A stretch of 64,000 nt of DNA from an uncultured Dehalococcoidales bacterium (GCA_964472625.1 CAYYLM010000003.1:33294-97293); one strand, 5' to 3'. Shown: positions 1 to 44,977, counted from the stretch's first letter. The notes: generated by a model from the letters alone, not told the origin. Made by a program: numbers and translations.

Positions 1-904
1 TTTTTAGCATCCGGTCGACGGCTAGTTTAGCCTTAAACCTAGTTTCTTCTGGAACCTTTACCTCAGGAGACAACTCCTCGAGGGACCATAGTATCTTTTC
101 CAGATTTATCTTCTTCATGTTGGGGCAGACAGCCCGCTCGGAAGCGGGTAGGAACCTTTTATTTGGGTTTTCCTTCCTGAGTCGATGCAGAATCCCAATT
201 TCGGTACCGACAATTATTAGCCCGGCATCTGTCCTTTGGGCAAAACCAATCATCCCGCTGGTGCTTAATACCTCGTCGGCAAGGGTAATCACCCCCGGCC
301 GGCACTCCGGATGAACGATTATCTTAGCCTCAGGATAGCGTTGCTTCAGTCTGAGGATATCCTCCGGCATTATCCTAGCATGAGTGGGGCAGTATCCTGG
401 CCAGAGTGTCAATTTCTTATCGGTCTTGGTTGCGACGTAATGGCCCAGATACTGGTCGGGGATGAACAATATCTCGTCACTATCAAGGCTTTCAACCACC
501 CTGACGGCGTTGGCCGAGGTACAGCAGATGTCCGATCCCGCCTTGACCTCCGCTGAAGAGTTAACATAGCAGACAGTACTGGCATGAGCTAGCTCTCTCT
601 TTCTGTACCTAAGCTGGTTAGCAGTGACCATGTTGGCCATGGGACAGCCCGCATTTATGTCGGGGAGCAGGACGGTCTTATCCGGGCTGAGAATAGAGGC
701 TGTCTCTGCCATGAAGTGTACGCCGCAAAAGACGATTACTTTGGCATCCGTCTTGGTAGCCGCCTGGCTCAGGTCTAAAGAGTCGCCGACAAAATCGGCG
801 ATATCCTGAACCTCACCCGCCTGATAGTTGTGAGCCAGGATAACCGCTCGCCTTTGTCCCTTGAGGTCAAGTATCCTTTCGATTAGTTCATTATCGTTTT
901 CCAT
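1..904 (-). CDS. nadA: quinolinate synthase NadA; C-terminal end runs off the window start
   Basis: Absent from the ORF track because no stop lies in the window. My translation of the minus strand from ATG (904..902) gives MENDNELIERILDLKGQRRAVILAHNYQAGEVQDIADFVGDSLDLSQ...KVIVFCGVHFMAETASIL...IIVHPEC..., a typical NadA. Plus-strand track ORFs 117..809 are its shadows. Confidence 0.85.
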   Translation of the reverse strand, partial: MENDNELIERILDLKGQRRAVILAHNYQAGEVQDIADFVGDSLDLSQAATKTDAKVIVFCGVHFMAETASILSPDKTVLLPDINAGCPMANMVTANQLRYRKRELAHASTVCYVNSSAEVKAGSDICCTSANAVRVVESLDSDEILFIPDQYLGHYVATKTDKKLTLWPGYCPTHARIMPEDILRLKQRYPEAKIIVHPECRPGVITLADEVLSTSGMIGFAQRTDAGLIIVGTEIGILHRLRKENPNKRFLPASERAVCPNMKKINLEKILWSLEELSPEVKVPEETRFKAKLAVDRMLK

Positions 905-33534: not shown

Positions 33535-34281
33535 TCACCTTAGGACGGCTTCAGGCATAACAACCGCATTCGTCAGGCGTTGCCCCAGCGCCTGCCACTG
33601 GAACTTCTTATGAAACCTTTCCAGGATATCGATGGTCTTCTTACCCAGCAGTCCCAGGAAGATGGCATTGGCTACGGCATGGGCGGTATCAAACCAGAGG
33701 CTATTAAGCTGAGATATAATGAAGGTCCTCGGTGTCAGGGGATAGATGAAGGCTGTCCAGAACCAGGTATTGACGATGAGGCCAAAGAGGTAACCCCAGA
33801 GGATGCCGAAAGCTGCCAGCCTTTTTCGGTCGGGATTAAGCCGTTTTAACAAATAACCGGCACTGACTCCAGCCATCCCCCAGGCAAACATCTGGTAGAT
33901 GGTCCACGGGCCCTGCCCGAGAAAGAAGTTGGAGATAAGGGCTGTTATCGCCCCCACCATGAATCCAGCCAGTGGGCCGAAGACATAACCCGAGCATATT
34001 ATCAGGTAGGTGCACGGCTGGACACTGGGTATGGCGGCAAAGGGAATTCTAACTACTGCGGAAACGGTGCTCAATATGCCGATGATAGCTATTTCCTTGG
34101 AGCCGATAGCGCTTCCCTCAAATTCAAAGAAGAAGGCGACAATGGTCAAACTGACCAGGATAACCGACATAAGCCCCCAGTTCTGCAAGATGTCAAGCGG
34201 TGAGGGACTAAATATCGGCGCCGTAAAAGCGGCGGCACCCAGTCCGATAATTACTAACAGAAAGATATATCTTGGTTTCAT
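33535..34281 (-). CDS. polytopic membrane protein, putative ECF substrate-capture (S) component
   Basis: 6-7 TM helices, last gene of the ECF operon, ATGA overlap with the ecfA stop. Confidence 0.55.
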   Translation of the reverse strand: MKPRYIFLLVIIGLGAAAFTAPIFSPSPLDILQNWGLMSVILVSLTIVAFFFEFEGSAIGSKEIAIIGILSTVSAVVRIPFAAIPSVQPCTYLIICSGYVFGPLAGFMVGAITALISNFFLGQGPWTIYQMFAWGMAGVSAGYLLKRLNPDRKRLAAFGILWGYLFGLIVNTWFWTAFIYPLTPRTFIISQLNSLWFDTAHAVANAIFLGLLGKKTIDILERFHKKFQWQALGQRLTNAVVMPEAVLR

Positions 34282-35963
34282 GACAGAATATCCAGGGCTT
34301 CGCTAACGGTCAGTATTTTGTTGGAGACCCCATAGCGTTCGAATGATTGTGCCAGGCGGTTTATCTGCGGTGAAAAAAGGAGGGCTTGAGACAGAGCCTG
34401 GTGTTTTTCACCATCGATGATAACCTTTCCCTCGCTCAGGAGGATAACTCGGTCAGCATATTCGGCTACTATCTCGACATCGTGGGTTACTAAAATCACA
34501 GTGTTACCCTCGGTGCGGTATTCATTCAAGAACCGCATCAGTTCGCTTTTCAGGCGATAATCCATGCCCCTGGTTGGTTCATCAAGAATCAAGACCTTGG
34601 GTTTTGTCGCCAGGACTGAAGCCAGTGCCACCCGCTGCTTTTCGCCACCACTCAAGGAACGAGGGTAGTGGTTCTTGTATTCATTAAGCTGAAATCTCTC
34701 CAGCATCTCAGCGGTGCGTGGTTCTATCTCTTCGCGGCTAAAGCCCAAATTCTTCAGGGTGAAGGCAATCTCATCAGAGACGGTATCGGCGAAGAGGTGG
34801 TCGTTGGGGTTTTGAAAAACAAAGCCCACCTTTCGCGCCAGTTCCGCAATCGTCGCTTCTCTGGTATCAATGCCGCTAACCCTAATTCTGCCCTTAGTCG
34901 GTACCAGGAGGCGGTTAAAGTGCTTTGCCAGCGTTGTTTTACCCGAGGCGTTTCGCCCCATAATGGTGATGAACTCCGCCTCGCCTATCTTAAGATTTAT
35001 GTTTCTCAGGGCGAGGAGTCCATTAGGGTAGGTATAGCCGAGCCTCTCGACACTAACTAGGGGGTTGGTGATTTCCCGCCCGTTACCCCCGCTAGTATCT
35101 TGAATCGGCGTAGTATTCTCAAAGACCTTCCTGATGATAGCCCGCCCCTCCTTAACGGTCAGGGGCACCCGGTCTATTTTGACGCCTCTATCGCGTAATT
35201 CCTGAACCAGACGAATCATGGGGGGGACACCGATGCCAATTCGGGAAAGCTCGGGGTAGCAATTGGTCATGACGTCTCTAACCTCACCATCAATAGCCAC
35301 CATCCCATCATTTAAGACTATCAATCGGTCGGCATACTGAAGTACCCTGTCGAGACGGTGCTCAATCAGTATCACGGTAAGACCGAGTTCGTCGTTCAGC
35401 CGGGTTATTATCGACAGCACCTCTTCAGCCCCCTTGGGATCAAGCTCTGAAGTCGGCTCGTCCAGTATTAGGATGTCGGGGTGGAGTGCCAGCACCGAGG
35501 CAATGGCAACCTTCTGTTTTTCCCCACCGGAGAGCTCACTGAGCTGCCGATAACGTAGGTTAGCGATGCCAAGTGTATCCAGTGATTCCTCCACCCGTTT
35601 GGCGATAAGATCTCGGGGGAAGGCGAGGTTCTCCAGCCCAAAGGCAATCTCCCGCTCGACATCCAGGCTCACCAGCTGATTTTCCGGGTCCTGAAACACG
35701 AAGCCGACTCTGGTAGCTAGCTCCTTAGTGGAGTGTTTGAGGGTATCCAGGCCACTAACCAGCACTCGACCATAAATCTTACCGCCGTAAAAGTGGGGTA
35801 TCAGACCATTAAGGCAGCGGCCAAGACTGGACTTACCGCCTCCGGAGGGCCCCGCCACCAGAACAAACTCTCCCTCCCCGATTTCCAGGCTAATGTCCCT
35901 GAGGGCGGGGTGAGTAGTATCGCTATAGTAAAAAGTCAAACCTTCTATTCTAATCAAGGTCAA
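34278..35963 (-). CDS. fused energy-coupling factor ATPase (EcfA-EcfA', two ABC domains)
   Basis: Two Walker A sites (GPSGGGKSS, GRNASGKTT), two LSGGEKQ[KR]VA signatures, two ILDEPT Walker B motifs. Confidence 0.85.
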   Translation of the reverse strand: MTLIRIEGLTFYYSDTTHPALRDISLEIGEGEFVLVAGPSGGGKSSLGRCLNGLIPHFYGGKIYGRVLVSGLDTLKHSTKELATRVGFVFQDPENQLVSLDVEREIAFGLENLAFPRDLIAKRVEESLDTLGIANLRYRQLSELSGGEKQKVAIASVLALHPDILILDEPTSELDPKGAEEVLSIITRLNDELGLTVILIEHRLDRVLQYADRLIVLNDGMVAIDGEVRDVMTNCYPELSRIGIGVPPMIRLVQELRDRGVKIDRVPLTVKEGRAIIRKVFENTTPIQDTSGGNGREITNPLVSVERLGYTYPNGLLALRNINLKIGEAEFITIMGRNASGKTTLAKHFNRLLVPTKGRIRVSGIDTREATIAELARKVGFVFQNPNDHLFADTVSDEIAFTLKNLGFSREEIEPRTAEMLERFQLNEYKNHYPRSLSGGEKQRVALASVLATKPKVLILDEPTRGMDYRLKSELMRFLNEYRTEGNTVILVTHDVEIVAEYADRVILLSEGKVIIDGEKHQALSQALLFSPQINRLAQSFERYGVSNKILTVSEALDILS

Positions 35964-36876
35964 CCCTCTGTTTCAGGTATGCCAGCGGCAGTAGTGCCAC
36001 TAGCAGTGCTGCCATTAGCCCGAGTAGCCATGCCTCCCAGCCGGTAGGACTTACCCATGACACGGTAGGGTAGTAGTGATATTGCCCATAGCCATTGAGA
36101 CCCATAAAGATGCCCAGTGCCGCCGGAAGGAGGCAAAACACCAAGGTGGTAATGTCCGTCGGGCTGAAGCCTAGGTCGCGGTAAAAGGTGCGCTGCCGCC
36201 CACTACCGAAGGCTCGCGACTCCATGGCTTCGGCGACCTGAACGGCTCTATCCAGGGAATTAGATAGCAGGGCGGTCACGATAGCGGTGCGGCTCTTTAT
36301 TCTCTGGGGTAACCGGCCCCTGTCCAGCTCGAGACCCCTTGACCGCTGAACATCGGTAATGCGCGCTATATCATCAAGCAGGGTAGGGATAAACCTGGCA
36401 GAAAGCGAGGTAACCAGTACCGACTTATAGGGTAACCTGAGCTTTATCATCGCCAGCATCATGTCATCAGGGTTAACCGTGAAAGTGAGCAGGGCAAAGG
36501 CGGAGATTATCGAAAGTAGCCTGAGCGACATGACTGCCCCGTAGATGATAGCCTCCAGCGTTATTACCGGAACCCCCACCAGCGGCAGGTGAAACGGAGC
36601 CTCGAACAGAACATGAGTGCCGTGAGAGCTCACCAGGGTATTTATGAGGATGATTGCTGCCGAAAGATAGAGTGCCAGCCTCATAGCGGAAAGCCACTCC
36701 GACCACACCCGGGCTGCCTTTACCAGCGGCAGCGTTGACAGAAACACCACGAGCAGAAAGAGGGGACTGTCGAGCACCAGGGAAAGGATAAGGATGCTGG
36801 TAATCCAGCCCAGCTTGGAGAAGGGATTAAGCCGGTGGACTAGGGTACCTTTATCCTGATATCTAAAGCTCCTCAC
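35950..36876 (-). CDS. ECF transporter transmembrane (T) component, CbiQ/EcfT family
   Basis: Polytopic, with the conserved ARxxxxRG-type coupling motifs (SLSARFIP..., VQRSRGLELD) of EcfT. Confidence 0.8.
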   Translation of the reverse strand: MRSFRYQDKGTLVHRLNPFSKLGWITSILILSLVLDSPLFLLVVFLSTLPLVKAARVWSEWLSAMRLALYLSAAIILINTLVSSHGTHVLFEAPFHLPLVGVPVITLEAIIYGAVMSLRLLSIISAFALLTFTVNPDDMMLAMIKLRLPYKSVLVTSLSARFIPTLLDDIARITDVQRSRGLELDRGRLPQRIKSRTAIVTALLSNSLDRAVQVAEAMESRAFGSGRQRTFYRDLGFSPTDITTLVFCLLPAALGIFMGLNGYGQYHYYPTVSWVSPTGWEAWLLGLMAALLVALLPLAYLKQRVDLD

Positions 36877-37913
36877 TACTGGGGCAACCTCAGTGTCTCT
36901 CCTTCAGTAACCACCACGGCACAGGCATACTTATAATCGTCGGGGTGATTGATCAGGACATCCACGGCAGCTTTTACACCGGCTTCATCCAATCCAGAGA
37001 CCACCCAGACCACGTTCTCGCCGGCGCCAACGCCCTTCGGGTTCCAGATACTCTGGGTCGCCTGGATGAGGCCGGTACCGGCACCGTATCCATTAACCAG
37101 CTCACCAGCTGAGTCGAAGACCACAAGTGCCCCGTCTTCAAAGTGACCGAAAAAGCCGAGCCGGTTCCAGGGCTCGTTTAGCTCCTCGACTGGTGCAAAG
37201 TCACTGGTGCCCACCAAGACGAGGTTACTGGACTCCTTATCCCCGGCTGATAGCTCATCAAAACTCTGGCAGGTAACATCCGGGACACCCAGCCCCATTA
37301 GTCTATCAGCTATCTGTCTTGCCTCCTCTTCCCAGCCACTCTGATAGGCAACCACGGTAGGGTAAACCACTCCTCTGATGCCGTGAACAAACGGCTCCGG
37401 AAAGTCGCCGATTATGGCCGGAATAAACTGGCGGAAGCTCCAATCGTGATAGTCCCAGTGCTCACTATCTCCATCCCGAAGAATATAGCCCCCGGCGCCG
37501 GTGCTGAGCGAAATGCCGTTTATATAGAAAAGCCAGTCTTCCTTGGTCTTGTTGGACCCCTCGTATTTAGAGCTGATACCCTCTATTGAGCTCACAAAGC
37601 CGCCCCCGTATTTGGTCTCGACGCTGGCCACCATCTGCAGGCCGTCCAGAGCCGTAGTGTCCTCACCAATGGCTACACTCTTTTCCAAAATAGCCGGCTC
37701 ACTGAAACCTCGGGTAACTATGATGCTGACTGAGGAGCCTGAGCTAGCCAGACCGCTGTCTTCTTGGGGGGGGAGACTCTCAGCCGGGCTGGGGTTACCT
37801 TCGTGGGAAGCGACGTTACCCCCCAGTGCTCCCGACACGCCGTCGGCACAGCCACAGAGCAGGGCTGTGAGCAGGGCTATGATAGCCAGGCTGATAAACT
37901 GCCTAGGCCGCAC
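36876..37913 (-). CDS. DUF4430 (transcobalamin-like C-terminal domain) lipoprotein
   Basis: LLCGC lipobox. SVSIIVTRGF...TALDGLQ...KYGGGFVSSIEGI...EDWLFYINGISLSTGAGGYILRDGDSEHWDYHDW fits DUF4430. Confidence 0.65.
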   Translation of the reverse strand: MRPRQFISLAIIALLTALLCGCADGVSGALGGNVASHEGNPSPAESLPPQEDSGLASSGSSVSIIVTRGFSEPAILEKSVAIGEDTTALDGLQMVASVETKYGGGFVSSIEGISSKYEGSNKTKEDWLFYINGISLSTGAGGYILRDGDSEHWDYHDWSFRQFIPAIIGDFPEPFVHGIRGVVYPTVVAYQSGWEEEARQIADRLMGLGVPDVTCQSFDELSAGDKESSNLVLVGTSDFAPVEELNEPWNRLGFFGHFEDGALVVFDSAGELVNGYGAGTGLIQATQSIWNPKGVGAGENVVWVVSGLDEAGVKAAVDVLINHPDDYKYACAVVVTEGETLRLPQ

Positions 37914-38439
37914 GACGCTTCCTCCTCCTTCGGATAGTAAGGGGAATAGCGATTGCCAAAACTACCGCGATAATTAACCACATTATGGGAGACCCCGCCG
38001 CAAGTTCAGCTATCTTCCCGACCGGCGGTGCCAGGCCCACCAGAACACGGAGTGGTATTTTAACCCCACAGCCAACCTTCAGTTCTGATGCGGGCATTAG
38101 AGAGATGGCACATACCGTCGCCTCATAATCGCCGCGTGCCCCAAGCGGCGGCGTTACGGCTACTTCCACCACCTGACTATCGCCTGGCTCCAGAATAAAT
38201 TCCTCCGGGGAAACGCTGGACCATTCCTTAATTTCACCCTCGACATATACCTGGCATAACCCTTGTTCCCCAGAGGTATTGATGACCACTACCGATTGGG
38301 AGGCCTTCATCAGTGGGTAGGCCTCAAGCTCAAGCTGTCCGGGGGTTACCCCGATCCCCGAAGCCAGTACTCCACCGGGGAACAGTAATAGCCCCAGCAA
38401 CAAGGTAAGCGGTAGTAACACCCCTAATTTCCTAGTCAA
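37903..38439 (-). CDS. secreted Ig-like-fold protein with C-terminal TM anchor and polybasic tail
   Basis: Signal peptide, beta-rich middle, hydrophobic IMWLIIAVVLAIAIPL followed by RRRRKRRAA. Confidence 0.5.
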   Translation of the reverse strand: MTRKLGVLLPLTLLLGLLLFPGGVLASGIGVTPGQLELEAYPLMKASQSVVVINTSGEQGLCQVYVEGEIKEWSSVSPEEFILEPGDSQVVEVAVTPPLGARGDYEATVCAISLMPASELKVGCGVKIPLRVLVGLAPPVGKIAELAAGSPIMWLIIAVVLAIAIPLTIRRRRKRRAA

Positions 38440-38501
38440 CGAACCTGCTTCCTCTCTTAACTACAGGAGGTAGTTAGCCTCCAGTAGGCACATCTCTACC
38501 A

Positions 38502-40511
38502 TTATGGCGCTTCCGCTGCCCAGAAGATGACGGTGCCGCTTTGCTCACCCACCCCAGTATAGCTTTCCGGGACGGTAAGCGTGGCGGAGCACTCCGCATC
38601 ATTACCACGGCTAATTACTTCAGCGAACAGGTCCCACAGGTCGCCATTAAGTTCGAGACCCTCGAAATAGAGATCCCCAGCCTCTCCGGACATTTCACAG
38701 GTCACCTCGGCATCCCAGGCACCGACGTTGGTTATGGTTATCAGTTGAGGATCACTCGTGTCCCGGGGGCCCAGCTCACCGAAGTCTAGGCTGCTTGGCT
38801 CGACGGTAATGGCTATCGCCGGTATGATAGTGGCCGTCAAGCCTACTTCACCGGTAACTCCAGAACCGGTGCCGACGGTGACGGTAACCCGGTTACTGCG
38901 GATAAAGCCCTCCTTCTCCGCGTAGATCTCAAGGGTGGCATCCATATCTACGGTGATATCCACCGTACCTAGGGCCCCGGTAGTGTAGTTAGTGTTGGCA
39001 TGGACGGTTGCCCCTTCACAGGGCGACCAATCATTGGTACTATCGCTGTACTCACTTACGGTGACGGTAAATTGCTCGCCTACCGCAGGCTCGGTGTTGT
39101 CAACCTCAATCCTGAGCGGTAGAGCGCCCCAGTTATTATCGGTGATGTAATAGAAGAGGATCTCCTGGTGCGGCGGGTTAGGGGGTGTGGTCTCGCCAAG
39201 GATAAAACCTCCGGCGCCAACTAGGGCACTGAAATAGTCCACCCGGTAGAGCCAGGCGCTAGTCATCGAGCCTTCCTCCCCCCCGATTGAGGTTATATAT
39301 AGACTCTCAAACGCCTCCCCATACTCGTCAGTTGTTTCGTAGGCGAAACTACCAGCCTGAGATGCTTCGTCCAAGGCTCCGAGTACCGTCGGATTCTCAG
39401 AATAGTAGGGATTGTTGCTGTTGGTCGCCGTAACTATCGACTCCGTAACCGTAACACTGCCACTCCAGATGGTGCTGCTCTGCCCTTCGATTCTGACGTC
39501 AACGCTATACCCCTCTTCCCCAGTCGGCTCCAGGGCGACCACCGGATAGGAATCACCCAGCGAGGCAATTATGGCTTTGGCCGTTGTCTGGGACGGCCAG
39601 GCCCCCGGATAACCGTCCTGAAAGTAGAACTCACCACCCGCCTGCTGGTAAGTCAGGAGGTCATCAACCGGGGTATTATCCCCGGTGGAAGTCCAGCTGG
39701 CACCGTTGGGGTCTTGGCCGCAGGCCACTATGGCACTTATTGCCCAGGAATCAGTCTCGGCATTAGTCGAACCCCAGGACAAAAAACCGCCGTTAGCCTG
39801 TTGGGTTGATTTAATATAGGCTAGGGCACTAACTATCGGTGCGGAACCGGCTGTCTCCCCGGCGGAAATTAAGGCCATCACGGCCGCACCAGTCATGTCA
39901 ACATCACTGGCTAACCCCACCGAATAGGCCCAGCCACCGTCTCCGTTCTGGTTATCTATAATAAAATCTACCGCATCGGTGATAATCTGATAACTCTGAC
40001 TCCGTCCCGCAGCGATTAGCGCCATGACGCCAAAGATATCATCGTTGAGAGACGCTTCCTCACCAATCTGCTGGGTGATATCGTCATAGGTTCCTTCCAG
40101 CAGAGAAACAAAGTCACGGCCGCCGAAATTAGTGGGGTCCTCATCCGAAGCAACAATAGCTAATATCATCCGCGAGTAGTCAGTTGGCGAACTGGCGCTA
40201 CCGGCATTAGCAGCTAGGTAATCAACGATAGAGTTGTCGCCCACCTGCCAGTTGTGGGGGTCCTCATCGGCCGCGGCGATTGCCATCGTCACCCAGGCCG
40301 AATCAACGAAGCTACCGATTGAGCCATCGCTGCCCTGCTCACCACTGAGGTAGTCCAGAGCGTTTGCCACCTCGGGGTCGGTAGCCTGCATGGGGTAGGA
40401 GTCTGCTGCCATAACCGGGGCGATGAACAGTGATGCTGAAGTCGCGGCTAGGGCAATTATTGCGGTAACAATGTGAGCTATAGTCTTTTGCCTCTTCACA
40501 GTAAAACGCAC
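38502..40511 (-). CDS. secreted multidomain protein: prenyltransferase/squalene-oxidase-like alpha/alpha repeats + DUF4430 + Ig-like domains
   Basis: Signal peptide (VMA/AD). Repeats ALDYLSGEQGSDGSIG, DFIIDNQNGDGGWAYS, ALAYIKSTQQANGGFLSWG. Then a DUF4430-like block (VDVRIEG...TVLGALD...SAWLYRVD...GAGGFIL). The GTG start is uncertain by about 4 codons. Confidence 0.65.
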   Translation of the reverse strand: MRFTVKRQKTIAHIVTAIIALAATSASLFIAPVMAADSYPMQATDPEVANALDYLSGEQGSDGSIGSFVDSAWVTMAIAAADEDPHNWQVGDNSIVDYLAANAGSASSPTDYSRMILAIVASDEDPTNFGGRDFVSLLEGTYDDITQQIGEEASLNDDIFGVMALIAAGRSQSYQIITDAVDFIIDNQNGDGGWAYSVGLASDVDMTGAAVMALISAGETAGSAPIVSALAYIKSTQQANGGFLSWGSTNAETDSWAISAIVACGQDPNGASWTSTGDNTPVDDLLTYQQAGGEFYFQDGYPGAWPSQTTAKAIIASLGDSYPVVALEPTGEEGYSVDVRIEGQSSTIWSGSVTVTESIVTATNSNNPYYSENPTVLGALDEASQAGSFAYETTDEYGEAFESLYITSIGGEEGSMTSAWLYRVDYFSALVGAGGFILGETTPPNPPHQEILFYYITDNNWGALPLRIEVDNTEPAVGEQFTVTVSEYSDSTNDWSPCEGATVHANTNYTTGALGTVDITVDMDATLEIYAEKEGFIRSNRVTVTVGTGSGVTGEVGLTATIIPAIAITVEPSSLDFGELGPRDTSDPQLITITNVGAWDAEVTCEMSGEAGDLYFEGLELNGDLWDLFAEVISRGNDAECSATLTVPESYTGVGEQSGTVIFWAAEAP

Positions 40512-40553
40512 CCCCTATAATCAATTTTAGTAGTGAATAAACAACTATATTTG

Positions 40554-40582
40554 ATTATATCGGGGTAAAACAAGCATGTCAA
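40554..40582 (-). promoter_or_regulatory. perfect-consensus sigma70 promoter for the ECF/transcobalamin-like operon
   Basis: Minus strand: TTGACA (40582..40577), exactly 17 nt, TATAAT (40559..40554). The predicted leader to the first gene is only about 35 nt. Confidence 0.55.
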
Positions 40583-40658: not shown

Positions 40659-41441
40659 TCATTTTCTGGCCCTATCAACTATCCGGTAGCCAATCTCCGC
40701 TTCTTCCAACCTTTTAATAAGACCGGAGATTTCATCTTCGCTACAGGCTACTACCGGCTGCAGGCCACAGTGGGCCGCCTCAATCGCAGCTTCCTGGACA
40801 CCATACCGATGGAAATTGACTTTTAGCCGCTTTAGGGTAACCAGTGCCTCAATTCCTAGGGCACCAATGAAGGGTTTACCCTTCACTTCCTGCCGCAATC
40901 TGGTAAGATCAACATTCCGGGAACCACCTTTAGTGACGCTGGGCACTCTGAAGATGGTCACCGTACCCAGTTTAAATTTTACTATCCCCTCTATGTTGGT
41001 TACCCCGACGTCCTCACCGGCGCCGGCGTCAGATGTGGTTATCCCCCTGGCGCCATTGGTAACCTTGGGAGTAGCATAAAGCAGGCCGCCTTTCATCTTT
41101 AGACCGACGGTCTCCCCTTTGGTCAGTTCGCATTCGGCGATAGCGGTACAGACCGAGATATTGGTGATAACCTTTTCCACAGAAGTCGTGTAGCGTCTCA
41201 ACTCCCTCAGCATCCTGACTATCCAGTTCACACCCTCGTCGGTTACCCTATAATTAGAACGGCCGTCGGCAGCCAAAAGTCTATCTTTTATCAGTTGGCT
41301 AACGTAATCCGAGATTGCCTGTGGGGTGATAGCTAGCCTTTTAGCAATTTCCTGCTGTTGGACACTAGGCCCACTATCAGCTATCGCCACCAGTATCTGC
41401 AACTTTGTCGCCAGGCTTTTATTACGCAGTATCTCGACCAT
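40659..41441 (-). CDS. winged-helix (MarR-like) DNA-binding protein with uncharacterised C-terminal domain
   Basis: N-terminal QQEIAKRLAITPQAISDYVSQLIKDRLL wHTH. No family is recognisable for the C-terminal ~170 aa. Confidence 0.6.
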   Translation of the reverse strand: MVEILRNKSLATKLQILVAIADSGPSVQQQEIAKRLAITPQAISDYVSQLIKDRLLAADGRSNYRVTDEGVNWIVRMLRELRRYTTSVEKVITNISVCTAIAECELTKGETVGLKMKGGLLYATPKVTNGARGITTSDAGAGEDVGVTNIEGIVKFKLGTVTIFRVPSVTKGGSRNVDLTRLRQEVKGKPFIGALGIEALVTLKRLKVNFHRYGVQEAAIEAAHCGLQPVVACSEDEISGLIKRLEEAEIGYRIVDRARK

Positions 41442-42306: not shown

Positions 42307-43593
42307 TCAAGTAGCCGGGTTCAAAACACGGCCTATGAATAGTATGCTGCCGGTTTCAATATCGCGAATCAGAAAGATGAAGGGGCGATTAGCAGTGAAT
42401 TCAACCGGTGTCCCGGGTAGTGCCGTTACCTTCATAATAACTGCCGTAGCCGCTGCTGCTTCCGTACCGGCTTCATCCACCGAAACAAATGCCTTATGAA
42501 CCACGGCTGATATGAACAGGTCGCGACCACCGGTCATGCCGGAAAAGTCCGCACCTTCAGTAAAAGCGATGGGCATACCCATTGCCATAAGGGCCTCCTT
42601 CAATTTGAAGGCTGAATCAAACTCGAATTTGGGCATGGCCAGGGCGACCTGTCTCTGATCCAGAGCATTTACAATAGCGTTTACTTGCTCGGCATTTAGC
42701 GATTCTTCAAACGCCTCAAACTGACCAGCTCGGGGCAGTAAAATTACCATCGAGAGTTCACCACCGTCATAAGGCAGCTCAACCGCCTGATAGTTGTCAT
42801 CTTCGGTGTAGTCAAATGATTCCGTTTGCCTCATCATCGGCACGGTCACCTCTCCGCCGTCGAGCCGGTAAAATTGGCTATCGCTGGTTATCGCCTCGTT
42901 GAAAGGATACTGCCAGGCTGCATTGAAGTAAATGGCGTTCGTAAGGACGAGCCTGGTGAGTATATCAATCAGGCCCTGCGGGATGAGGTCTTCAATTCGA
43001 CCTTCCGTCTGGTCACTGACCCAGTTGTTAATGATGAGCCGGGACTCTTCCGGCGCGCTGGCAAAGTCTAAGGGTCTGAGTCCGGCACCATAGTTCTCTG
43101 CCAATACGTCAAGGAAGGTGGGGAGAAAGTGATAACCCTTTTGGCCCCAGATGGCATTAACGATGTGCAATCGGAACCCCTCATCATCCTTACCTTCAGC
43201 GCCTTCGCCGCGCTTTCCGAGTTCTATATCGAGGCTATTGAATGCTGGATGCAGGCGATTTTGAGAGAGAGTGAAATGAAGGGCATCGGCCATCTGCTGT
43301 TCGGTCTCGCCTCGGGCACCAGCGTAGGTCATCGCTAGCGCTAGCGATATGCTATAGGGAGAGTAGAAGAGGTTACCATCTTCTTCCCTGAGTGCCTGAT
43401 ATAGATTGAACGCAAAAGCGCTATTCCCCTCAACCAGAGGTTTAAGGTCAGTTTCAGTCACTTCTGGTGAAGTCACGCGCGGCTTCTCCGATTGTACTAT
43501 CTCACCGGCTACCGCTTGGACACAGGACGTCAGGCACAGCGGTACTACTACCAGCATACACAGAAAAACCTTTTTCATTTTAGCTGCCTCCAA
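42307..43593 (-). CDS. serpin family serine protease inhibitor, secreted
   Basis: FYSPYSISLALAMTYAGARGET, hinge/RCL DEAGTEAAAATAVIMKVTALPG, then FTANRPFIFLIRD. N-terminal signal peptide (start possibly MKKVF at 43578). Confidence 0.8.
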   Translation of the reverse strand: MEAAKMKKVFLCMLVVVPLCLTSCVQAVAGEIVQSEKPRVTSPEVTETDLKPLVEGNSAFAFNLYQALREEDGNLFYSPYSISLALAMTYAGARGETEQQMADALHFTLSQNRLHPAFNSLDIELGKRGEGAEGKDDEGFRLHIVNAIWGQKGYHFLPTFLDVLAENYGAGLRPLDFASAPEESRLIINNWVSDQTEGRIEDLIPQGLIDILTRLVLTNAIYFNAAWQYPFNEAITSDSQFYRLDGGEVTVPMMRQTESFDYTEDDNYQAVELPYDGGELSMVILLPRAGQFEAFEESLNAEQVNAIVNALDQRQVALAMPKFEFDSAFKLKEALMAMGMPIAFTEGADFSGMTGGRDLFISAVVHKAFVSVDEAGTEAAAATAVIMKVTALPGTPVEFTANRPFIFLIRDIETGSILFIGRVLNPAT

Positions 43594-43933: not shown

Positions 43934-44977
43934 ATGATGGTCAAGCCGGGCAAGATATGCTTTATGGTGGTCGCAATTCTGGCTTTTGTTCTCATCCTCG
44001 TGGGCTGCCGCTCTAGCCCGTCGACCAAGATAACCTTTGTTACCGACCGTGATGGCGATGCAGAAATCTATGTGATGAATGCCGATGGCTCTAACCAGAC
44101 TAACCTCACCAATGCCCCGTCTTTGGATAGTATGCCGTCCTGGTCGCCGGACGGTACCAGGATAGCCTTTATGACCTACCGCGATGGCAATTTGGAAATC
44201 TATGTGATAGATGCCGACGGTTCCAACCAGACTAACCTCACTAATTACCCGGCGGCGCAAGATGACATGCCGTCCTGGTCACCGGACGGTACCAAGATAG
44301 CCTTTAGGACTAACCGTGATGGCAATGATGAAATCTATGTGATGGATGCCGACGGCTCCAACCAGACCAACATCACCAAGAACCCGGCTGGTGATGTTAA
44401 GCCATCCTGGTCACCGGACAGCACCAGAATAGCCTTTGAAACCCAACGCGGTGGCAATTGTGAAATCTATGTAGTGGATGCCGACGGTTCTAACCAGACC
44501 AATCTCACCAATAATCCAACCCTTGACACTTGGTTTATCAGTTGGTTGCTACCCTGGTCGCCGGACGGTACCAAGATAGCCTTTAATACCAACCGTGATG
44601 GCAATTTGGAAATCTATGTGATGAATACCGACGGTTCTAACCAGACCAACCTCACCAATAACCCGGCTAATGATCAGTCTCCGTCTTGGTCACCGGACGG
44701 TACCAGAATAGCCTTTGAGTCCTACCGTGATGGCAATTCTGAAATCTACGTGATGGATGCTAATGGTTCTAATCAGACCAGACTTACCAATAACCAATTT
44801 ATGGATAGTATGCCATTCTGGTCACCGGACGGTACCAAAATAGCCTTTAGTACCAATCATGATGGCAATTCTGAAATCTACGTGATGGATGCCGATGGCT
44901 CCAACCAGACTAAGCTCACTGAGAACAATGCTACCGATATTAACGAAGCCTGGTCACCTAATCTGCATATACCATAA
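43934..44977 (+). CDS. TolB-like PD40/WD40-like beta-propeller repeat lipoprotein
   Basis: Seven units of [33 protein letters not shown]. Signal peptide with LVGC lipobox. Confidence 0.8.
44021..44963 (+). repeat. seven in-frame tandem PD40 repeat units with long near-identical DNA stretches (approximate limits)
   Basis: Strings such as GATGCCGACGGTTCTAACCAGACCAA and TGGTCACCGGACGGTACCA recur about every 135 nt. Confidence 0.6.

Follow-up and report, generated by a model that had tools for sequence, protein, structure and literature searches.

The DNA analyzed here, hereafter the window, is a stretch of 64,000 nucleotides (nt) from an uncultured Dehalococcoidales bacterium, whose genome assembly totals 1.37 Mb in 30 contigs and is 93% complete. 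It carries, at positions 33535-40582, an operon of six genes (g1 to g6) encoding an energy-coupling factor (ECF) transporter and three putative extracytoplasmic proteins. Very likely, this operon serves to import complete corrinoids (cobamides) by means of a dedicated, group I ECF transporter endowed with its own extracytoplasmic capture proteins, and it is probably the sole corrinoid uptake route of the organism. Such operons were already predicted to serve in B12 scavenging in 2007 (Burroughs, Balaji, Iyer and Aravind, PMC1796856), and the window operon is a well-supported further example. Three of its features deserve attention, namely the apparent sole dependence of the organism on this operon, a conserved and unnamed C-terminal domain in its lipoprotein, and a candidate protein regulator.

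Operon Organization and ECF Module

Six co-oriented minus-strand open reading frames (ORFs) follow one another head to tail and fill positions 33535-40582, exactly the span that an earlier reading, made from the sequence alone (hereafter the sequence-only reading), had assigned to a six-gene operon behind a consensus promoter. In order, these are g1 (38502-40511, 669 amino acids), g2 (37903-38439, 178 amino acids), g3 (36876-37913, 345 amino acids), g4 (35950-36876, 308 amino acids), g5 (34278-35963, 561 amino acids) and g6 (33535-34281, 248 amino acids). A gap of 62 nt separates g1 from g2, while the remaining junctions are overlaps of 11, 1, 14 and 4 nt, in that order, the last one being that of g5 with g6. 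The promoter (TTGACA-17-TATAAT, 40554..40582, minus strand) is of the sigma-70 type and matches the consensus at 12/12 positions, the sole such match in a 10-kb scan. The TTGACA/TATAAT pair is preserved at the orthologous loci L002, L004, L116, L117 and L118. The leader measures about 36-48 nt, its length varying with the GTG taken as start codon, close to the ~35 nt announced previously. The absence of a cobalamin riboswitch from this locus, also announced previously, was borne out by Rfam in the window, by RF00174 in the whole genome and by a purpose-built nhmmer model, all of which were negative.

The last three genes encode the transporter itself, and the families proposed for them by the sequence-only reading all proved to lie above profile cut-offs. 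The product of g4 (minus strand) is an EcfT of the CbiQ family (PF02361, 97.7 bits for a cut-off of 25, residues 11-228 of 308), followed by ~80 residues past the CbiQ domain (window 35950-36190, minus strand) with apparent extra membrane helices and an aromatic-rich loop. That of g5 (minus strand) is a fused EcfA-EcfA' protein with two ABC_tran domains, scoring 495 bits with TIGR04520 (cut-off 315) and 469 bits with TIGR04521 (cut-off 330). That of g6 (minus strand) is a CbrT-like ECF S component (PF12822, 60.2 bits for a cut-off of 30.7). Having their own T, two A domains and S, g4 to g6 thus qualify, by these profiles, as a dedicated ECF transporter of group I, and tblastn revealed no further EcfT or S component in the genome.

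As regards the substrate, the best sequence match of g6 in the PDB is 6FNP_A (CbrT, E = 2.5e-10, residues 64-230), the only other solved S component matched being 4HZU_S (E = 0.008). The closest solved relative is therefore CbrT, not a member of a characterized non-corrinoid family. ECF-CbrT of Lactobacillus delbrueckii (6FNP) carries cobalamin and cobinamide (Santos et al., 2018, PMC5997447). It is likewise an ECF-type ATP-binding cassette (ABC) importer, studied without an extracytoplasmic partner; CbrT, however, is a group II S component of 182 amino acids working on a shared ECF module, whereas the window module is dedicated, with a fused A-A' protein. Furthermore, g6 has ~60 extra N-terminal residues (window 34100-34281, minus strand), apparently two helices, which CbrT lacks. 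The nearest relatives of g6, like those of g1, belong to Dehalococcoidales/Dehalococcoidia metagenome genomes.

Homologous Operons and Their Link to B12

An alignment-based scan of species genomes provided 80 homologous loci from Dehalococcoidia, Bacillota, Actinomycetota and archaea, in which the T, A-A' and S genes are nearly always accompanied by genes for alpha/alpha-toroid and/or SLBB proteins. Cobalamin riboswitches head many of these operons. An RF00174 search in 50 genomes found one just upstream of the operon in ~30 of them; a direct Rfam scan placed RF00174 just upstream, on the operon strand and at the predicted coordinates, in 8/8 loci; and an nhmmer model built from those 8 riboswitches matched directly upstream in 40/80 loci. 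In five genomes (G009, G011, G014, G016 and G028), the operon riboswitch is the only cobalamin riboswitch found. The sequence-only reading had raised the question of whether homologous operons are linked to another substrate: cobalamin riboswitches lead 40/80 loci, but the one homologue studied by experiment, lsa1836-1840 of L. sakei, was tied to heme, which goes some way towards that refuting condition (see below).

At 50% identity, the family of the S component falls into 2140 clusters. A quick maximum-likelihood tree places the window S component in a clade of 40 rows with 100% support (15 riboswitch-led, 10 from Dehalococcoidia, 6 archaeal and 9 other), and its nearest bacterial relatives outside Dehalococcoidia are cobalamin-riboswitch-led. 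Several relatives (P0246, P0260, P0271, P0330 and P0278) are fused to alpha/alpha toroid domains, often together with SLH repeats, which suggests, from gene fusion, that toroid and S component work together. In other relatives (P0300 and P0379), the S component is fused behind a double ATPase.

A further link is provided by Lactobacillaceae, where locus L103 holds a true CbrT orthologue (E = 2.4e-53 against 6FNP_A). The short CbrT genes of this family sit between a DUF4430 gene of ~130 codons (129 amino acids, E = 1.4e-20) and the gene of a cobalamin adenosyltransferase of the PduO type, while a fragment of a ribonucleotide reductase gene lies upstream. Since this order reproduces that of the nrdJ-cbrS-cbrT-pduO cluster named in PMC5997447, where cbrT adjoins cbrS and pduO, CbrS is a DUF4430 protein, which links DUF4430 genetically to a B12 transporter of proven function.

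A few other loci may be noted. In Neomoorella stamsii (L012 10873-11078, plus strand), the cobalamin riboswitch lies downstream of the S gene, not upstream of the operon, and probably controls the next genes. No cobalamin riboswitch was detectable at the Bacillus cereus-group operons (L073, L074, L078, L079 and L080), although one is present in Ectobacillus, their nearest relatives. At the Neobacillus cucumis locus (L033 1017-1164, plus strand), the cobalamin riboswitch is preceded, at a distance of 2.2 kb, by a flavin mononucleotide (FMN) riboswitch.

Predicted Capture Proteins

The first three genes, all on the minus strand, encode the putative capture proteins. As read from its translated sequence, g1 (38502..40511) begins with a signal peptide and is secreted; it combines an alpha/alpha toroid, an SLBB (DUF4430-like) domain and, after the latter, two beta-sandwich domains. 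The toroid repeats are of the squalene-cyclase/prenyltransferase type (SQHop_cyclase/Prenyltrans; SQHop_cyclase_C, 30.4 bits). The description of g1 as a secreted alpha/alpha-repeat and DUF4430 protein in the sequence-only reading is thus upheld for the toroid and for the fold, but its DUF4430 match remains below the Pfam cut-off (20.9 bits for 23.8), and the DUF4430 call is made here because of the fold matches and of the Pfam hits recorded for g1 homologues. The AlphaFold2 model of mature g1, built from a 40-row alignment, had a predicted local distance difference test (pLDDT) of 90.9 and a predicted template modelling score (pTM) of 0.56. Its top 15 Foldseek matches in the PDB are all transcobalamin, haptocorrin or intrinsic factor structures (E from 1e-11 to 1e-8), aligned along ~450 columns that span both domains, the best of them, e.g., 2bb5, 2pmv and 4kki, at E about 1e-11. 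A VIA comparison with intrinsic factor (2pmv_A) gave a Z score of 20.3 for 335 aligned residues across positions 3..425 of the model. These animal proteins share only 12-17% sequence identity with g1, which adds the two beta-sandwich domains and differs in predicted domain orientation; moreover, they deliver their ligand to endocytic receptors, not to a transporter.

The lipoprotein g3 (36876..37913; lipobox LCGC, Cys22) carries an SLBB/DUF4430 domain well above the cut-off (PF14478, 48.9 bits for 23.8), as had been proposed, as well as an alpha/beta domain at its C-terminus. The AlphaFold2 model of residues 60-345 is of high quality (pLDDT 93.7, pTM 0.92). Its N-terminal domain, of the beta-grasp fold, matches the isolated transcobalamin beta domain (5no0 and 5np4) and the structural-genomics DUF4430 protein 3u7z, with TM scores of 0.66-0.69 and a root-mean-square deviation (rmsd) of 2.8-3.7 Å across ~100-107 residues. 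The C-terminal ~190 amino acids (window 36876-37430, minus strand) resemble the flavodoxin-like domains of BcsB (Foldseek E = 3e-5); no Pfam family was found for this domain or for the C-terminus of g1, and an Atlas feature search with the former returned low scores only (0.77). This C-terminal domain and the SLBB domain are conserved together, directly upstream of EcfT, in Dehalococcoidia, Desulfotomaculia, Syntrophomonadaceae, Actinomycetota and Thermoplasmata. At many loci of Bacillota and Actinomycetota, the toroid protein lacks an SLBB domain of its own, and in such split versions the lipoprotein probably supplies it in trans. Within the window operon, a complex prediction of g6 with g3 scored 0.45, the best of 3 controls scoring 0.00; the runs agreed in at least 81% of contacts, with a partner pLDDT of at least 86. 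The mark applied is reached by 58/80 solved complexes and 2/110 mismatched pairs, but at scores of 0.60 or under by only 7/80 solved complexes together with both passing mismatches, and these counts hold only roughly for runs which, like this one, used custom alignments. The prediction, which returned no interface, thus lends weak support to a hand-over from g3 to g6.

Between g1 and g3, g2 (37903..38439) shows by eye a signal-like N-terminus, a hydrophobic C-terminal stretch acting as a probable membrane anchor and an RRRRKRR tail. The proposal that it is an Ig-like (immunoglobulin-like) anchored protein holds for the anchor, as read by eye, while the Ig-like part is a probable one, based on a sub-threshold NPCBM_assoc match (E = 5.6e-4, 20.5 bits for a cut-off of 24.4). 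Among the loci fetched through the S component, g2 orthologues were seen only at L002 and L008. The idea that g2 is a paralogue of the C-terminal domains of g1 was rejected, BLASTP giving no similarity (E = 9.6).

Apparent Corrinoid Requirement of the Genome and Distribution of the Operon

The genome encodes corrinoid-dependent functions, with 7 PF02310 B12-binding matches above the cut-off and a CobA/BtuR corrinoid adenosyltransferase. Conversely, CbiC, CobS, CbiB and HemB were not found in the 93%-complete assembly, and only one TP_methylase was. As B12-binding domains and an adenosyltransferase are present while synthesis and salvage genes were not found, the organism makes use of corrinoids and apparently can neither synthesize nor remodel them. 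Neither a BtuF-type binding protein (Peripla_BP_2) nor a FecCD permease was found in this assembly at E <= 0.01. The check suggested by the sequence-only reading, i.e., whether the genome lacks de novo cobalamin synthesis and btuFCD, therefore came out in favour of that reading in this assembly: de novo synthesis, btuFCD and nucleotide-loop salvage were not found, and yet corrinoid-dependent proteins are encoded. The g1-g6 operon is the only visible candidate corrinoid importer in the genome.

The distribution of the two importer types was evaluated in 151 genomes of the class Dehalococcoidia, some of which are relatives and hence not independent. The S family occurs in 22/151 of these genomes, 11 of them with a close orthologue of g6, and in 0/8 same-order genomes of families f2-f4. 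FecCD, which is not specific for B12, occurs in 125/151. The S family was present in 9/26 genomes without a FecCD match versus 13/125 with one, so that the ECF type is commoner where FecCD was not found. Among the 11 genomes with a close S orthologue, 6 have no FecCD match, 1 has a weak match only and 4 have both. This pattern fits a partial replacement of one importer type by the other. No relevant literature was found on CbrT or ECF transporters in Dehalococcoidia.

Alternative Substrates

Several points weigh against the assignment of this operon to corrinoids. The absences reported above rest on an assembly that is 93% complete and split into 30 contigs. No riboswitch was detected at the 9 Dehalococcoidia and 6 archaeal loci examined, and the regulatory link to B12 would reach the window operon by homology only. 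The relationship of g6 with canonical CbrT is distant (43.9 bits), and in the quick tree the short, canonical CbrT orthologues group apart on a long branch with 97% support. The g1 model superimposes on transcobalamin-type structures with an rmsd of ~23 Å; its domain orientation, modelled with a pTM of 0.56, thus either differs from that of holo-transcobalamin or is poorly predicted. Taken by itself, its toroid (residues 1-285) has its closest structural matches in class II terpene cyclases (VIA-align, Z 25, 2.8 Å), ahead of the transcobalamin alpha domain. No Pfam Cobalamin_bind match was found in g1 at E <= 0.01, and it is described here as transcobalamin-like, not as a family member, for this reason: according to its model, it has the transcobalamin plan, a toroid then a beta domain in one secreted chain, without sequence-level family membership. 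Finally, corrinoid binding and transport by this operon type stand as predictions from sequences and models, and the sole homologous operon tested at the bench, lsa1836-1840 of L. sakei, was tied to heme uptake.

This last system is the basis for the best of the alternatives, an import of heme, or of tetrapyrroles in general, which we nevertheless consider unlikely. The L. sakei operon has the same five core parts as the window operon (S component, fused ATPase, EcfT, beta/SLBB protein and alpha/toroid protein), the toroid and the SLBB domain being separate proteins where g1 has both, and it is the only member of the operon type examined by mutation. In its deletion mutant, the uptake of 57Fe-hemin at 5-40 µM was 5- to 8-fold lower, uptake was restored by complementation in trans, and heme was docked between the toroid and beta-domain proteins in the same study, which assigned the operon to heme in a heme-rich niche. 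However, the effect was seen only at 5 µM hemin and above, with no difference at 1 µM, and B12 was not included. The Lactobacillaceae and Bacillus cereus-group operons have no riboswitch, which would suit heme, but cobalamin riboswitches head half of the homologous loci, including those of the nearest bacterial relatives of the window operon outside Dehalococcoidia, and the long-type S components of Lactobacillaceae branch outside the window's clade. With HemB not found, any heme used by the window organism would need to be imported. However, no cytochrome c assembly protein (Cytochrom_C_asm) and no ORF with at least two CxxCH motifs were found in the genome, b-type heme proteins not having been searched, and no heme demand is therefore evident. 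Taken together, the riboswitch data, the tree position of the Lactobacillaceae long-type S components and the lack of a visible heme demand argue for a corrinoid, not heme, as the substrate here, though a promiscuous transport of tetrapyrroles is conceivable.

Slightly less probable still is that the operon imports some bulky cofactor or metabolite other than a corrinoid or heme, with the transcobalamin-like folds acting as generic binders of soluble ligands. SLBB domains do bind diverse ligands, a distinct metabolite was suggested for archaea able to make B12 (Burroughs et al., 2007, PMC1796856), the window locus is riboswitch-less, and the family of the candidate regulator described below sits, in one Dehalococcoidia genome, beside an Opp/Nik-type transporter. 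Against this, all the positive context points to B12, i.e., the riboswitches, the similarity to CbrT and the DUF4430-CbrT-PduO clusters, and the window genome combines an unmet need for imported corrinoid with no other candidate transporter. A cobalt/nickel ion transporter of the CbiMNQO/NikMNQO type, suggested by automatic names such as "cobalt transport protein" and "cobalt transporter ATP-binding subunit" (names of this kind being carried by PF02361 in Pfam and by several ATPase models of NCBIfam), is highly improbable and was rejected: there is no CbiM/NikM-type S component, g6 being a PF12822 S component closest to CbrT, TIGR02454 (the CbiQ equivalog) scores 70.7 for a cut-off of 111.8, the cobalt ATPase equivalogs are also under their cut-offs, and an organism unable to build corrin has little use for dedicated cobalt import.

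Candidate Regulator and Operator

Upstream of the operon, on the same strand, lies a gene (40659..41441, minus strand) for a winged helix-turn-helix (wHTH) protein of MarR type with a DUF7839 domain (Pfam MarR_2/HTH_24, and PF25211 at 85.9 bits), which the sequence-only reading had put forward as a possible regulator. The suggestion is strengthened by its conservation as a neighbour in Dehalococcoidia and Thermoplasmatota, and the regulatory role would follow from this context. The wHTH-DUF7839 family is almost wholly archaeal, and no mention of DUF7839 was found in the literature searched. In Dehalococcoidia, the gene is upstream of the operon and co-oriented with it at L002, L004, L006 and L008, and in G091, G190, G175 and G064 it precedes the S gene by 6-7 kb on the same strand, this arrangement being found in at least 9 genomes of the class. 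Across the class sample, it is present in 23/151 genomes, i.e., 10/11 with a close S orthologue versus 13/140 others. Among the loci fetched through the S component, a hidden Markov model of the regulator found it at only 4, none of them archaeal. In Thermoplasmatota, 36/121 sampled genomes have one copy; the gene directly adjoins the ECF ATPase gene in 7/20 loci, in an eighth (L122) a T-AA'-S set of divergent orientation is 2.4 kb away, about five loci have a toroid protein nearby, and at 12/20 archaeal loci its neighbours are unrelated (AIR-synthase-like, CoaBC, aconitase). In the phylum of the Methanofastidiosum genome, DUF7839 was found in 1/121 genomes. In a complete Dehalococcoidaceae-like genome, the gene sits beside a methyltransferase, an Opp/Nik-type ABC transporter, FeoB and Fur.

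A candidate operator for this protein is an imperfect 22-bp dyad, ATAAtCAA-N6-TTGtTTAT (40537..40558, minus strand), in which 18/22 positions are self-complementary and which overlaps both the -10 box and the transcription start. A single copy of its core, TAATCAA-N6-TTG, is present in the window, against 0.15 expected, and a single one in the 1.37-Mb genome as a whole; this core recurs at the same place in five orthologous promoters (L002, L004, L006, L115 and L118; six with the window) whose flanks have otherwise diverged. A dyad at this place and a conserved neighbouring gene form the pattern expected of a repressor replacing a riboswitch, and binding of the one to the other may be postulated from the sequences. 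It is possible, though we hold it only tentatively, that wHTH-DUF7839 is a protein repressor of the corrinoid-uptake operon, binding the -10 dyad and responding directly or indirectly to corrinoid supply, as the counterpart of the riboswitch in riboswitch-less lineages (Dehalococcoidia, Thermoplasmatota and other archaea). If so, it would be a family of B12-linked transcription factors unrelated to CarH/LitR, and it offers a testable candidate for the control of B12 uptake in archaea and Dehalococcoidia at riboswitch-less operons.

Two other occurrences of the gene may be mentioned. In a Dehalococcoidia genome without an ECF S component (L112, G193:C20:27000-41000), it lies 3 kb upstream of a B12 gene cluster in the order btuF, a diphthamide-synthase-like gene, cobA, btuC, btuD, cbiB, cobD and cobT; in a related genus of the same family (G091), it lies beside the ECF operon, and the two may reflect an in-place swap of importer type. 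In a Thermoplasmatota locus (L133 8438-10669, plus strand), ~1 kb separates it from the gene of a TSCPD-domain ribonucleotide reductase, an enzyme type that usually depends on B12.

Proposed Mechanism and Comparison With Known Systems

A plausible mechanism may be outlined as follows. Secreted g1 would bind a corrinoid in the space between alpha/alpha toroid and SLBB domain, in the manner of animal transcobalamin, a binding mode suggested by its architecture, and g2 may tether g1 to the membrane. The lipoprotein g3 would bring a second SLBB domain to the membrane surface and hand the ligand over to g6, so that we infer a relay from g1 to g3 and then g6. The EcfT g4 and the fused ATPase g5 would then drive the S component to release its ligand inside the cell, as established for ECF-CbrT (PMC5997447), and the imported corrinoid would be processed by the CobA/BtuR adenosyltransferase encoded elsewhere in the genome. 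Expression would start from the consensus promoter and would probably be repressed by wHTH-DUF7839 at the -10 dyad, in place of the riboswitch of the Bacillota and Actinomycetota operons.

The gene set described by Burroughs et al. (2007, PMC1796856) is that of the window: a secreted fusion of toroid and SLBB domain, additions of Ig fold, another, paralogous SLBB protein, a CbiO-like ATPase and a CbiQ-like membrane protein, in operons that likewise occur in organisms without B12 synthesis. That work was computational and predates the definition of ECF transporters and S components; the Dehalococcoidia version, the lipoprotein's C-terminal domain and the wHTH-DUF7839 neighbour were not part of it. 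The same task, the high-affinity capture of scarce corrinoids outside the cell followed by ATP-driven import, is performed by BtuFCD, a type II ABC importer, and by the BtuG/BtuH surface relay of Bacteroides, with components unrelated to those of the window operon. ECF transporters are, by textbook, binding-protein-independent, which makes a dedicated lipoprotein partner unusual, and the operon would constitute an exception to this rule.

Corrinoid supply limits many anaerobes, including the Dehalococcoidia used in bioremediation, whose cultured models import corrinoids via BtuFCD. The lineage described here, for which the searches revealed neither BtuFCD nor genes of nucleotide-loop salvage, seems to rely on finished cobamides, and this bears on which cobamides such organisms can use and on who feeds them. 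It also bears on a system that was predicted in 2007 and whose only bench study pointed to heme.

A last observation concerns the neighbourhood of the operon. A full-length serpin (PF00079, E = 1e-123; window 42307-43593, minus strand) and a PD40/WD40-like beta-propeller protein (43934-44977, plus strand) are encoded side by side. Serpins are uncommon among bacteria.

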